Source: a virus (Duplodnaviria; Heunggongvirae; Uroviricota; Caudoviricetes). From it: a stretch of DNA of 4,788 nucleotides. A model generated the notes under the pieces. The model worked only from the letters and a program-made list of their open reading frames with translations, was not told where the DNA came from and ran no database searches. The position numbers were made by a program, and so were the translations under genes. The DNA lies in IMG/VR virus record IMGVR_UViG_2537561727_000003, positions 1-4,788 of that record. One strand, given 5' to 3'. Positions 26 through 4,439 of the stretch are shown here, piece after piece; position 1 is the first letter of the stretch; each line of letters starts with the position of its first letter.

Positions 26-439
26 ATGATGCCAGTTGCCCGTTATCTCTGCATTTTCATAAACGTTGGTTTGGGAGAAGCGGCAAAACGGGATGTGGGG
101 ACAGGGGAAAATCAGATACCGGACATGGCCTCTTTTGCCAGTGGTGATGGATGGATGAAATTACCCAACGGGAAAATCCTGCAATATGGTCGTGGTGCGG
201 TTACGCCGACATTATCGACGCAAACAATGAGAATTACATTCAGCATCCCTTTTCCTAAAAAAGTGGACTGCGCCATGCTTACTCATTCTGGTGATGGTGG
301 TGCGCCTTTAGGTGCTGGGCGAGGGTTCATGATGACTGCAGAAGGCCCAACATTAACCGGTTTTAATTCCGCTTACAGAACTGCATCAACCAGTTCCACA
401 GTATCGATGAATTACAGTTGGTGGGCTGTTGGTGAGTAA
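26..439 (+). CDS. Silent alternative tail-fibre C-terminal cassette (variable receptor-binding domain), expressed only after inversion
   Basis: Open frame from the ORF track (137 aa). The crossover site at 54-79 lies inside its 5' end, and codons 71-79 (GGA GAA = GE, preceded by GLG) are identical in frame to the GLGE codons of the minus-strand tail-fibre gene at the other site. Only 68-439 (about 119 aa, AAKRDVGTGENQ...WWAVGE) would be joined to the constant N-terminus after inversion. The ATG at 26 has a GGAG only 1 nt upstream (poor spacing), so independent expression is doubtful. A cognate chaperone gene follows 20 nt downstream. Confidence 0.65.
   Translation: MMPVARYLCIFINVGLGEAAKRDVGTGENQIPDMASFASGDGWMKLPNGKILQYGRGAVTPTLSTQTMRITFSIPFPKKVDCAMLTHSGDGGAPLGAGRGFMMTAEGPTLTGFNSAYRTASTSSTVSMNYSWWAVGE
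54..79. repeat. Left crossover site for a Hin/Gin/Cin/Pin-family serine invertase (26 bp, imperfect dyad)
   Basis: TTTTCATAAACG TT GGTTTGGGAGAA. The inner half (68-79) is the exact reverse complement of the inner half of the right site (1960-1971), and the 15-bp core 66-80 is a perfect reverse complement of 1959-1973. The central TT is compatible with the AA of the right site in inverted orientation. Confidence 0.8.
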
Positions 440-459
440 TTTTATTCAGGGTGATTTAT

Positions 460-903
460 ATGAACGAATATGTTTATAGCGCAAGGCATAATGCTTTTTT
501 CCCTGTGGATATGATTGATAAATATAAATCAGAGGGATGGGATTTATCAGATGCAAAGGAGGTGAATCAAAATATTATCAGTGAGTTTATGGCTGAACCG
601 CCACAAGGAAAAATCAGTATTGCCGGAGATGATGGGATGCCTGCGTGGGCAGATATTCCTCCACCCACGCATGAAGAGCTTATTGAAATTACTGAATCAG
701 AAAGACAGCTACTAATTAACCAGGCCAACGAATACATGAACAGTAAGCAATGGCCCGGTAAAGCCGCTATTGGTCGTCTGAAAGATGACGAACTGGCGCA
801 ATATAATTTGTGGCTGGATTATCTGGACGCACTGGTGCTGGTCGATACTTCCGGTGCGCCAGATATTGAATGGCCTACGCCTCCGGCAGTTCAGGCCAGA
901 TGA
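460..903 (+). CDS. Tail-fibre assembly chaperone (Tfa family), partner of the silent cassette
   Basis: C-terminus ...LWLDYLDALVLVDTSGAPDIEWPTPPAVQAR is the conserved Tfa C-terminal signature seen in lambda/Mu/P2-type tail-fibre assembly proteins. ATG at 460 is preceded by AGGGTGA (446-452); the ORF track starts at GTG 451, which has a weaker RBS context. It sits directly downstream of the tail-fibre cassette, as for Mu U' / P2 G. Confidence 0.85.
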   Translation: MNEYVYSARHNAFFPVDMIDKYKSEGWDLSDAKEVNQNIISEFMAEPPQGKISIAGDDGMPAWADIPPPTHEELIEITESERQLLINQANEYMNSKQWPGKAAIGRLKDDELAQYNLWLDYLDALVLVDTSGAPDIEWPTPPAVQAR

Positions 904-1480
904 CATCCGGCGCGGTGCTGGTATCTGTTGCCGTCACCGCGTCAATGTAATCCAGCACAGCGTTAAGTCTGGTTGTTTCTGCCTGCGTCAACTTCCGTCC
1001 GGCCTGTAATTTCAGCTGAATCAGACTAATGGAAGCCATTGCTGCATCAATCAGTGACTGGCGCTGTGCTTCTGCCGCGTCTACTGCGGCACTATGCTGT
1101 GCCTCAGTATCCGTCACCCATTTCTCACCATCCCATTTATCATATGGCGTTAACGGGGCGATAGTGGTTGTATTTTCAGGGTAATCACCCGGAGCTGTGA
1201 TTTCTTTCGATTCTCCTGTTTCGGTGCTATAGATGATTTCACCGCGATGGTCTGGCACATATTCCCATGAGTTAAAATCTGCAGAACGGCAGATTGCATA
1301 ACCAGCTTTATGTGTAACTGGTGCATCTAAACAAGAACATGCCGGGATACCGACGCCGACAGCGAGATATTCAGTTGATGTAGAAATATATTCACGCGTT
1401 TCACCATCATAATTATAAATGATAATGTCTCCCGCTTTTATGGCAATGAGTTCACTATTTAATACAGCTTTATTCATCAT
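875..1480 (-). CDS. Tail-fibre assembly chaperone (Tfa family), partner of the currently expressed tail-fibre variant
   Basis: 201 aa. C-terminus ...LNAVLDYIDAVTATDTSTAPDVIWPELPEA matches the Tfa C-terminal signature and the plus-strand Tfa. Its start ATG (1480-1478) overlaps the TGA stop (1479-1477) of the upstream tail-fibre gene (ATGA coupling). The AT-rich 5' half and GC-richer 3' half suggest a mosaic gene. Confidence 0.9.
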   Translation of the reverse strand: MMNKAVLNSELIAIKAGDIIIYNYDGETREYISTSTEYLAVGVGIPACSCLDAPVTHKAGYAICRSADFNSWEYVPDHRGEIIYSTETGESKEITAPGDYPENTTTIAPLTPYDKWDGEKWVTDTEAQHSAAVDAAEAQRQSLIDAAMASISLIQLKLQAGRKLTQAETTRLNAVLDYIDAVTATDTSTAPDVIWPELPEA

Positions 1481-2799
1481 GCAGCCCTCACAATATAATT
1501 AAAGGCGATGTTACGTGGACGATTTTCATTTGCTGTTGGAACAACATTTGCCGCCGAGAAGTGAACATCTTGTCGGATTTTTCGGTCATTAGCGTATGTC
1601 ATAGACACATTGATGTTATTCCGGACTGAGGTACCTCCGTAAAAAGCCCCACTCACACTTTGAACATCGACAATTGCATTAATTTCGCTGTTTACGCGCA
1701 ACTGACCAAAACCGCCAGTAATGTTTCGAATAGCATCTCCTTGCGATGAAAGCAGAGTTCGCCCACTATCCACACCACGTTCATCATCCCAGCCACGAAT
1801 AAACTCACCACGTAAATCAGGCAATTTATTGGTCGGGTAAGCCTTTGCCAGTTCCGGGTATTCTTCAGCAGAAAAAGCCGCACCATTGCATTTCAGCCAG
1901 CCTGTTGGCGGAGTGGCTGAAGGCCACGGAACAGGCACACCAACCGGTAATGCAGAGCCTTCTCCCAAACCAAGGTATGCGAGAAGACCAGCTACATCCT
2001 TTCCACTCAAATGAGTCAGCGTCTCATCCAGTGGCTGCTTACCTGACAGCGCATTGTTAATGGTGGTGCTGAATTTCGGGTCATTGTTAATGGCTGCGGC
2101 AATTTCTTTCAGTGTGTCCAGCGTGGCTGGCGCACCGTTAATCAGAGCGGTAATAGCGGCCTGAACAAACGCAGTGGTCGCAATCCGCGTGGTGTTATTT
2201 CCTGCGGCAGGCGTCGGCGCTTTTGGTTCTCCGGTAAATGTCGGATTATGTTTCTGCGCATACTGTGTATGAGGATCCTGTGCGGCAATGTGGTTTCTCA
2301 TCTGGTCATCCACATACAGCCTTAATTCCAGGACTTCATCATCCACGTATTTACGGGTCGCCAGTACCACCGACGGGTCGATTTTCAGCGTGATAGCTTC
2401 GGTATTCGTGACAACCAGAATCATGCGGATAGTCTGGGTACGACCACTGCCTTCCTGCAACTGCGGTTTGTACGTTTCCGGGCAGTTCGCCACCGCAATG
2501 AGTACGCCTTCATCATCATAAAGCCCAATCTCACGGATCCAGAATCCGCCCTCGTTCTCAGGGATGATTTGCTCCGCAATAATCTGGCTCTGGTTGTTCG
2601 GGTCAACACTCAGAAGATTCAGCGGCGCGATGCGTTTCTGGTTAATCAGTTTTGTCTGTGCCGGGTCTGGTGTCGGCAAGACACCATTCGCATCACCAAC
2701 GGCCATTTGCGTCAGATTCAGCTTACTGCCGAGCATCGTCGCGTTAGCCAGCCGTGCTGCGCCCTGATTAGTCAGAATGGCGTAGTATTTCACTGTCAT
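1477..2799 (-). CDS. Tail-fibre protein (P2 gpH / Mu S-like constant N-terminus fused to a variable C-terminal domain)
   Basis: 440 aa. N-terminus MTVKYYAILTNQGAARLANA...MAVGDANG resembles the N-terminus of P2 gpH-type tail fibres (from memory). The C-terminal part contains a tail-collar-like stretch (PVGVPVPWP...GWLKCNGAAFSAEEYPELAKAY). Start ATG 2799-2797 overlaps the stop of the upstream gpI-like gene. The crossover site at 1960-1985 lies in codons 273-281 (LLAYLGLGE), separating constant residues 1-280 from variable residues 281-440. Confidence 0.9.
   Translation of the reverse strand: MTVKYYAILTNQGAARLANATMLGSKLNLTQMAVGDANGVLPTPDPAQTKLINQKRIAPLNLLSVDPNNQSQIIAEQIIPENEGGFWIREIGLYDDEGVLIAVANCPETYKPQLQEGSGRTQTIRMILVVTNTEAITLKIDPSVVLATRKYVDDEVLELRLYVDDQMRNHIAAQDPHTQYAQKHNPTFTGEPKAPTPAAGNNTTRIATTAFVQAAITALINGAPATLDTLKEIAAAINNDPKFSTTINNALSGKQPLDETLTHLSGKDVAGLLAYLGLGEGSALPVGVPVPWPSATPPTGWLKCNGAAFSAEEYPELAKAYPTNKLPDLRGEFIRGWDDERGVDSGRTLLSSQGDAIRNITGGFGQLRVNSEINAIVDVQSVSGAFYGGTSVRNNINVSMTYANDRKIRQDVHFSAANVVPTANENRPRNIAFNYIVRAA
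1960..1985. repeat. Right crossover site for a Hin/Gin/Cin/Pin-family serine invertase (26 bp, imperfect dyad)
   Basis: TTCTCCCAAACC AA GGTATGCGAGAA. The half-sites are TTCTCCCAAACC and, in reverse complement, TTCTCGCATACC. This closely resembles the hixL sequence as I recall it (TTCTTGAAAACC AA GGTTTTTGATAA), about 20 of 26 positions. It lies inside the tail-fibre gene at the constant/variable boundary. Confidence 0.8.
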
Positions 2800-3407
2800 G
2801 CGTTTACTCTCAGGTTATCAATTAAATGAATGGCCGAGGCCGGGAAATAATCCCCTCCGACAATAATGGCCTCCGGGGTGTAGGGATAAACCGTCAGGGC
2901 GTCGCCGTGATAGCATCCCGCAACGGCAAAAATGTTGCCGGTTGTACTTAAACTGATAGCCAGTCCCGTCAGATGGCGGCTTGCCGGTTTTGCATCAGCA
3001 ACGAGGCGCTCCAGCTCCTGATACATTTCCTCGGTAATACCCTGCTCAAGCACGCCAACAACGATACGGAACGTCCCCGGCTCCTCGTTGAGTTGCCACC
3101 ACTCCCTCACCTCAATCAGATAGCCGAGCGGCTCCACCACACGGCGAATCGCACCAATAGTGCCCTTATGGCAGTGAATGAAATACGCATCGCGGATAAC
3201 AGCGCGTTTGGTCGCTTCCGGCCATTTATCATCCCACCTGTCGACCGAAAATGACCACGCCAGCCACGGCAGCAGATTTGCCGGACAGGTATCCGGGTTC
3301 CACAGCTCACGAATACTGACCGGCGTTTTTTCAATTTCCGCACAGGCTTTTGCGGCGGCGACTTCAAGCGGTGATGAGCCGGTCGGCAGCAGTCGCGAAT
3401 CACTCAT
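2796..3407 (-). CDS. Phage tail/baseplate protein, P2 gpI-like
   Basis: 203-aa ORF immediately upstream of the tail-fibre gene and downstream of the J-like gene, matching the P2 order J-I-H-G. A strong SD (GGAGG, reverse complement of about 3412-3416) precedes the ATG at 3407. The family assignment rests on position and recollection, not on a search. Confidence 0.8.
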   Translation of the reverse strand: MSDSRLLPTGSSPLEVAAAKACAEIEKTPVSIRELWNPDTCPANLLPWLAWSFSVDRWDDKWPEATKRAVIRDAYFIHCHKGTIGAIRRVVEPLGYLIEVREWWQLNEEPGTFRIVVGVLEQGITEEMYQELERLVADAKPASRHLTGLAISLSTTGNIFAVAGCYHGDALTVYPYTPEAIIVGGDYFPASAIHLIDNLRVNA

Positions 3408-4233
3408 CCGAGCCTCCGGTCACGACGCGGTATTCAGTACAGAAAGACGCCTGCGTATTGTTGAGCACGATGTCAGCCAGAGGTGCAGTCAGTTCGACAC
3501 GCTGCACGCCTTCCACATGCAAAGCGGCATAAATGGCAGACAGACGGATGTCGCGCCCCAGCCGGTGCTGTGCCGTGATATACGCTTCCAGTTTTTTCAC
3601 GGCGGCAGCGCGAATGGGTTCGCTTTCAGGACCAGGGTAAAGGTAAAGCGTGGCGTTTATCTGGTATTCAACGATGGCAGCAGACTGCACGGTCACACGA
3701 TCGGCCACCGGTCTGACGTCCTCGCCATTAAGGGCGTTACGCACCACGGCCAGCAGGTCTTCGGATGCGACACCGTTATTTTCACGTGACAGCACAGAGA
3801 TGGTGACGCAGGCCGGAGACGGACTGGTGACAGAGATATCCGCGACACGCCCGTCGGCACTGCGACCATGATACTGATAGGCTCCCACCGACCCGGCGAC
3901 GCTTAAGCCCTCAAACGCCTGCTGAATACGCAGACGATAATCGGTGTCAGACTCCATCACTGCCGGTGTCGGCGGGATAGTCGAATCATCTGCCGGGGTG
4001 ATAATCAGGCGCGTGGTGTTGTAATTGGCACCAATCACATCAAGGTCATTACCGGCGGCACAGGCCAGCATTACCGCCCGTGCGGCCTCATTCACACGCT
4101 GACGCCAGATAAGCTCACGATAAGCATTTTCCTCCAGCAGTTTGACGAGAGGCTCGGATTCCAGCGTCAGGGTACGGGCAACCGCCTCCTGCTGGTCTTC
4201 CGGGTATCCGCCGTGGCTGTCTGGAATATGACG
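3400..4233 (-). pseudogene. Baseplate assembly protein J-like, 5'-truncated (no start codon at the upstream end of the open frame)
   Basis: The minus-strand frame is open from a stop at 4236-4234 down to the TGA at 3402-3400 (277 codons). I translated 4233 to 4096 by hand and found no ATG, GTG or TTG; the first possible start is GTG at 4095, which is where the ORF track begins (231 aa). Baseplate J proteins of P2-like phages are about 300 aa, so the N-terminus appears to be lost at a deletion junction. A protein starting at GTG 4095 cannot be excluded. Confidence 0.6.
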
Positions 4234-4262
4234 TCAGCGCCACCGACATCACCAGCTCGTTT

Positions 4263-4439
4263 ATGGCTATCCGCAAGACCATGACCAGCAGCGGACGCAG
4301 CGCCACCTATGAGGCCAGCCGCAGCGAGGAAGCCAGCCACGCAGACCTCGCCTGGGCGACCATGCACGCCCTGTTAAATGAGCCACTCACCGCCGGTATC
4401 AGCACCCCGCTGACATCCACCATTCTGGAGTTTTACTGA
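4263..4439 (+). CDS. Short ORF or 3' remnant of an upstream packaging gene (by P2 synteny possibly the terminase large-subunit C-terminus), stop/start-overlapped with portal
   Basis: The plus frame is open from 4146 to the TGA at 4437-4439. The first ATG is at 4263 (MAIRKTMTSSGRSATYEASRSEEASHADLAWATMHALLNEPLTAGISTPLTSTILEFY, 58 aa), below the ORF track's apparent length cut-off. Its TGA shares the A at 4439 with the portal ATG (TGATG). There is no usable start at the 5' end of the open frame, so it may be a truncated remnant. Confidence 0.35.
   Translation: MAIRKTMTSSGRSATYEASRSEEASHADLAWATMHALLNEPLTAGISTPLTSTILEFY

Follow-up and report, generated by a model that had tools for sequence, protein, structure and literature searches.

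An inverted repeat at the overlapping 3′ ends of two convergent tail fibre chaperone genes is probably a by-product of coding

Two tail fibre assembly chaperone (tfa) genes converge at the centre of an invertible segment in the window, the 4,788-nt stretch of viral DNA analysed here, and an imperfect inverted repeat lies across their overlapping 3′ ends. This repeat is probably a coding by-product of two paralogues packed tail to tail, and not a selected RNA or DNA signal. Across relatives, the conserved feature is the geometry of the overlap and not the hairpin.

The ORF listing and Pfam matches identify the content of the window as part of a P2-like prophage, in which the two chaperones sit within a Gin/Pin-type invertible tail-fibre segment with the tfa junction at its exact centre. 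The segment is bounded by two crossover sites that form a 27-nt inverted repeat, the left at positions 54–80 and the right at 1959–1985, inside the tail fibre gene. Exact copies of the 16-nt crossover core, TCTCCCAAACCAASGT, occur only at 63–78 on the minus strand and 1961–1976 on the plus strand, where 0.04 would be expected. The P2 H-like tail fibre gene (1477–2799, minus strand; Pfam Phage_tail_fib and Collar) keeps its constant N-terminal part outside the segment and its variable C-terminal part (1477–1958) inside. An alternative, Sv′-like fibre C terminus forms part of a silent cassette (26–439, plus strand; Pfam Gp53-like_C, E = 2.7e-13); it is promoterless and is annotated in L001, an E. 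coli prophage 99.2% identical to the window. The two alternative fibre C termini are convergent and each has its own chaperone, with 26–439 (+) preceding a tfa gene at 460–903 (+) and 1477–1958 (−) accompanied by another at 875–1480 (−). Both orientations of the segment are seen among related loci that share the same constant fibre part, 17 of them window-like and 9 inverted. No serine invertase gene lies inside the window; in L001, a CDS annotated as "recombinase family protein" begins 3 nt to the left of window position 1, and its N terminus, read off the sequence, is MLIGYVRVSTNDQ. A third crossover site at the junction, which would lead to multiple inversions, was rejected, as only the two expected sites exist.

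Several other features flank the segment. On the minus strand, the fibre gene is accompanied by tail protein I (2796–3407) and a truncated baseplate J gene (3400–4095 and upstream). The J remnant runs straight into the C-terminal part of the terminase large subunit (window 4095–4265, with the joint at about 4201–4205), which ends at 4439, and the portal gene runs from 4440 onward. The P2-like prophage has thus undergone a large internal deletion at this joint, whose two halves are contiguous in no complete E. coli genome of the collection searched. Toward the left edge, a 16-nt inverted repeat that is 94% complementary pairs 3–18 with 440–455. The leader TTTTATTCAGGG(G/T)GAT precedes both the invertase start codon (minus strand, just left of the window) and the plus-strand tfa start at 460; the likeness may be accidental or may mark a translation-initiation region common to both. 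A terminator-like hairpin with TTTATTCAGG after it occupies window 37–18 on the minus strand, between the left crossover site and the start of the invertase gene, and is the first such site for minus-strand transcripts reading through the silent cassette toward the invertase gene.

Both chaperones are full matches to the Pfam family Caudo_TAP (PF02413). The silent-cassette gene on the plus strand, here tfaP (460–903, alternative start 451; E = 4e-30), is RefSeq CDS 4460–4903 in L001. Its minus-strand counterpart, here tfaM (875–1480; E = 1.8e-32), belongs to the cassette now connected to the fibre gene; it is annotated as tfaE in L001. The two overlapping ORFs score 105.1 and 112.7 bits against a gathering cut-off of 22.1 bits, and their matches reach profile positions 130–131 of 131. 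Over their final 72 residues they are 36% identical, collinear and gapless, and to judge from sequence they are paralogous Caudo_TAP chaperones arranged tail to tail. A PDB sequence search with tfaM returned no match, and a PDB profile search finds only Mu U (5YVQ chain B).

The 3′ overlap of the two genes spans 875–903, 29 bp that include both stop codons. The first-pass annotation had described this overlap, with the plus-strand gene ending at 903 and the minus-strand gene at 875, and both the ORF listing and the RefSeq annotation of L001, which holds the identical two overlapping CDS, confirm it. tfaP has a long tail that ends in …APDIEWPTPPAVQAR before its stop codon (TGA, 901–903, plus strand), and tfaM has a tail that is canonical for the family, …APDVIWPELPEA, before its own (TAG, 877–875, minus strand). 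The post-motif tail and stop of each gene are the antisense of the WPxxP codons of the other, such that the last eight residues and stop of tfaP (TPPAVQAR-stop) are the antisense reading of the tfaM tail WPELPEA-stop. The tail-to-tail tfa arrangement itself is already known, being annotated in thousands of genomes and in e14; a literature search returned nothing on an overlap or a terminator between convergent tfa genes.

Of 159 convergent Tfa pairs drawn from 160 viral-contig loci, 156 have exactly this 29-bp overlap. It is also present in a locus whose partner belongs to a Mu-U-like subfamily (L167; tail …NPVWPTPPGEQAN-stop) and in Citrobacter youngae (L191), and a Kosakonia locus has an overlap of 26 bp, one codon shorter; a single-protein scan of genome contigs gave 22 loci. 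The asymmetry of the tails is kept as well. One partner is canonical (WPELPEA-stop, WPAPPEA-stop or WPVPPVV-stop), and the other always reads WPTP(P/R)xxQAx-stop, the antisense reading of its neighbour's WPxxPEx-stop. Tails of the form WPTPPxxQAx-stop are found only in overlapped partners; in the Tfa alignment, the U and U′ proteins of both Mu and P1 and one P2-like single Tfa have canonical, WPxxPE-like tails. Nucleotide diversity is lowest at the junction (0.03–0.05, versus 0.09–0.15 in the adjacent conserved domain), a minimum that is partly an effect of anchoring the sequence set on 871–898 and partly of dual coding. At one further locus (L166, E. coli 03_3013), a hypothetical non-Tfa ORF (2313–2510) converges on a tfaM-like gene (2479–3084) with a 32-bp overlap. 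It stops at the same antisense TGA, inside GATGAC, and therefore any ORF entering that antisense frame ends there.

A repeat search places the arms of the imperfect inverted repeat at 856–876, the APDIEWP codons of tfaP, and 893–913, the antisense of the APDVIWP codons of tfaM; they are 21 nt long, 71% complementary and 16 nt apart, in line with the repeat first noted here. Paired by hand, they form 15 Watson–Crick and 2 G–U pairs with four mismatches. The symmetry centre is the CCGG at 883–886 (centre 884.5), where each gene uses CCG for the invariant proline of WPxxP and the two mirrored codons share 2 nt. This proline is invariant in the Tfa alignment, and the CCGG is also found in L191 and L167. 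A second inverted-repeat patch shares the same centre of 884.5, pairing 813–830 (codons WLDYLDA) with 939–956 (antisense of the tfaM codons VLDYIDA) at 83% complementarity. Because collinear homologous codons lie on opposite strands, the whole region is a diverged palindrome, and the inner TGGCC/GGCCA stem is guaranteed by tryptophan (TGG) and proline (CCN) codons on opposite strands.

The region 850–920 was folded in both orientations. On the plus strand the fold reaches −29.2 kcal/mol (z −1.8, with 12 of 200 shuffles as good), and on the minus strand, from which the segment is transcribed as it now lies, −33.4 kcal/mol (z −3.4, with none of 200 dinucleotide shuffles as good). No U-tract follows the stem on either strand, as had been noted from the letters; the downstream sequences are GGTGCTGG… (+) and ACCGGAAG… (−). 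A terminator scan of the window does not call the 856–913 stem, and an uninterrupted GC-rich stem with a loop of 3–8 nt is absent, given the four mismatches and the 16 nt between the arms. An Rfam scan of the whole window returned no family match at E ≤ 1, and the supplements of one E. coli K-12 3′-end mapping study contain no entries for the e14 tail genes (tfaE, tfaP, stfE, stfP and pinE).

We then compared the repeat with what its codons alone would produce. Under a null of synonymous codon resampling for the peptides APDIEWP and APDVIWP, 13.84 ± 1.05 complementary positions are expected in the arms and 15 of 21 are observed (P = 0.26), so that the coding null accounts for the repeat and the proposed origin of the stem in the common C-terminal motif APD(I/V)xWP is borne out. 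When only the synonymous sites of the arms outside the overlap are randomised, the region folds at −29.0 ± 4.4 and −29.3 ± 4.4 kcal/mol on the two strands, and the fraction of randomised arms at least as stable as the observed sequence is 0.47 (+) and 0.19 (−). The repeat thus modestly exceeds random sequence and does not exceed the coding null.

The pattern of substitution gives a similar picture. Covariation is absent among 45 distinct versions of 850–920 from IMG/VR and E. coli loci: the share of paired cells, 95.7%, is matched in 426 of 500 shuffles. Only one double change falls in the stem, and the 858–911 pair is broken in 23 of the 45. Across 85 unique sequences, site 858 carries G (52 sequences), T (25) or A (8), and 911 shows no compensating change. 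L167 and L191 have the same 29-bp geometry with other variants of the motif, and keep only the inner TGGCC/GGCCA stem; their junctions are no more stable when folded than shuffled sequence (z −0.3 to −1.0). Among the points against the by-product reading is the near invariance of sites 859–904, including the synonymous positions 861, 864, 867 and 870 outside the overlap; the sites are so few, however, that they are indistinguishable from the flanks, and the sequences were anchored on 871–898. Extra synonymous constraint in the arms was considered and rejected, as 858 is highly variable and the right-arm third positions 905, 908 and 911 vary like their neighbours, in a comparison with too few sites for any claim.

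We propose that the junction arose from the way in which the chaperones are packed. Each alternative fibre tip has one paralogous Caudo_TAP chaperone, and tight tail-to-tail packing of the two would make their C-terminal APDxxWPxxP motifs abut as mirror images about the CCGG at 883–886. In such a scheme, tfaM would keep the canonical WPELPEA-stop and the tail of tfaP would be a passive antisense reading of it. We infer that a single compaction event removed the tail, stop codon and spacer that one of the genes once had; since then, the geometry of the overlap would have been held by dual coding and inherited with the module. Transcripts of the active cassette would run into the silent cassette in antisense and end by Rho or further downstream, and any pausing or 3′-end protection caused by the hairpin would be incidental.

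If so, a hairpin in the middle of an invertible segment, however striking, needs no function, as tail-to-tail paralogues with the same motif always give one. For swaps of fibre-plus-chaperone cassettes, cutting at either stop codon truncates the other gene, and the last eight residues of the long-tailed chaperone are dictated by the antisense strand of its neighbour. Beyond annotation, the finding matters little.

An alternative, which we consider unlikely, is that the hairpin is a working bidirectional transcript-end element (a terminator, pause site or 3′-end stabiliser) that replaces the GC hairpin of Mu and P1. Its role would be to stop late antisense transcription through the silent cassette into the invertase gene, and such a stop would be useful, since in L001 the invertase gene lies downstream of the fibre operon in the same direction. 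The stability of the fold on the transcribed minus strand speaks for such an element, as do the spacer hairpins of Mu and a P1-like phage, which are perfect and outdo all 200 shuffles (z −4.7 to −7.9), and the canonical terminators that follow single tfa genes. Indeed, where a single tfa ends an operon, canonical GC hairpins follow, several of them with T-runs (L169, L182–184, L188, L189 and L192). Structures of this kind are common after tfa, and the lack of a dedicated one in the overlapped lineage is the only real argument for termination at this stem; a transcript-end structure at the end of tfa seems to be generally wanted, and the overlapped lineage seems to have no other candidate there.

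Set against this are the absence of a U-tract on both sides, a stem that the scan leaves uncalled, and a stability equal to that of synonymously randomised arms. Covariation is absent, half of the distinct sequences disrupt one of the pairs, and in L167 and L191 the junctions with the same geometry fold no differently from shuffled sequence. Translation also covers the 5′ arm and the loop, and the 3′ arm begins at the stop codon, so that both arms lie in or adjoin translated sequence. The bidirectional transcription stop suggested by the first-pass annotation is therefore unsupported, as coding explains the hairpin, no change in it is compensated and it is lost in L167 and L191. A stop or 3′-end structure at a tfa junction would be plausible in principle, given that Mu and the P1-like phage carry dedicated hairpins there. 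More specifically, this lineage may have lost a spacer hairpin of the Mu/P1 type and come to use the mirrored WPxxP codons as a coding-embedded bidirectional transcript-end or pause structure that lacks a U-tract, a scenario to which we give little weight. If it were true, a stretch of 58 bp would carry two protein C termini together with an RNA signal.

It is similarly doubtful that the junction is a homology patch for recombinational exchange of fibre-plus-chaperone modules and is conserved for that role. The 126 unique tfaP–junction–tfaM sequences do attest to exchange, since one right type is found with 23 different left N-terminal types and one left type with 10 right types, and similarity breakpoints relative to the window are scattered over about 720–1160, the C-terminal halves of both genes, with some at 871–917. 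The Mu-U-like partner in L167 has the same 29-bp overlap even though the sequence it shares with the window starts only at 871, and 52 bp of the other gene's 3′ end persist as an antisense remnant in HK97, which has a single tfa. However, the breakpoints spread over the whole C-terminal domain and are not concentrated on the arms, the diversity minimum at the junction owes something to set anchoring and dual coding, and imperfect arms of 21 nt are short for homologous recombination. The earlier suggestion of a homology patch thus stands for the conserved C-terminal domain as a whole and fails for the 21-nt arms. The whole conserved C-terminal domains are a shared linker between variable, fibre-specific N-terminal domains, and the arms within them are not special; support for a recombination role particular to the junction is weak. 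Structural work on Mu Tfa reportedly describes these proteins as modular, which fits the view of the C-terminal domains as linkers.

That the repeat and overlap are chance features or annotation artefacts is very improbable, for although the window has many 20-nt repeats of 70–80% complementarity (261 pairs), the arms fall precisely on the homologous codons of the motif, a second patch has the same centre, the overlap recurs across genera, and both ORFs are full Caudo_TAP matches to the end of the profile with collinearity over 72 residues, which refute this reading.

We prefer the coding by-product, and comparison with known systems sets it in context. The stem resembles a bidirectional intrinsic (Rho-independent) terminator in being a GC-ended stem-loop at the ends of convergent genes, here inside them. 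It differs in having neither a U-tract nor an A-tract, in being interrupted by four mismatches and a 16-nt central part, in being entirely coding and uncalled by a consensus scan, and in showing no structural selection.

The e14 P segment of E. coli K-12 (stfP-tfaP / tfaE-stfE, with the invertase PinE) is a close relative, matching window 748–1973 at 90.6% identity. It shares with the window the tail-to-tail tfa junction sequence and the type of crossover site, and a serine invertase gene adjoins it, as in L001. The K-12 junction (L002, 2603–2673) is nonetheless decayed, with CCT changed to CTT and a 1-nt deletion that turns GTTCAGG into GTTAGG, and the window copy is intact; as a result of these changes, RefSeq lists the K-12 tfaE as "frameshifted" and the opposing tfa as "partial". 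The equivalent segment of Escherichia phage pro483, a P2-like prophage, matches window 63–1973 at 94.5%. A P1-like phage, vB_EcoM-813R1 (L168, 3190–3240), has the overlapped junction of the e14/P2 type and not the P1 spacer hairpin. One C is missing from it, and its tfa therefore reads …INWPAPRRRRPDGI-stop; the opposing tfa (3615–4955 region) is annotated only as fragments. In HK97 (L165, 2726–2780), the only tfa has, directly downstream of it, some 52 bp left over from the 3′ end of another tfa in antisense (…LDALELVDTSGAPDIEWPTPPAVQAR-stop), including the second arm; this remnant is the footprint of an ancestral invertible segment.

The Mu G segment (S-U / U′-S′, inverted by Gin) and the C segment of a P1-like phage (inverted by Cin) have the same architecture as the window. 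Like the window, they combine a fibre part that stays constant with a pair of crossover sites, two alternative tips and two convergent Caudo_TAP chaperones; an invertase gene adjoins both, as in L001, and the chaperones of Mu and P1 are homologous to those of the window over the C-terminal domain. The overlap, by contrast, is absent. U and U′ are 28 nt apart in Mu, where the spacer forms a perfect GC-rich hairpin, AAGGCCCGatagCGGGCCTT, and 34 nt apart in the P1-like phage, where the spacer hairpin, GTGAAGGCCCGATaaATCGGGCCTTCAC, has a perfect 14-bp stem. The Mu (L163, 3504–3531) and P1-like (L164, 4217–4250) hairpins have a common core, AAGGCCCGATA…CGGGCCTT, and look like one homologous element; a U-rich tail is present only in the Mu hairpin and only in the U′ direction. 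Both chaperones of Mu and of P1 keep canonical tails (WPQKPE, FPEQPE, WPTEPG and WPEEP, each followed by a stop). The e14/P2-like family thus differs from Mu and P1 in having a 29-bp overlap where those phages have a spacer with a dedicated hairpin.
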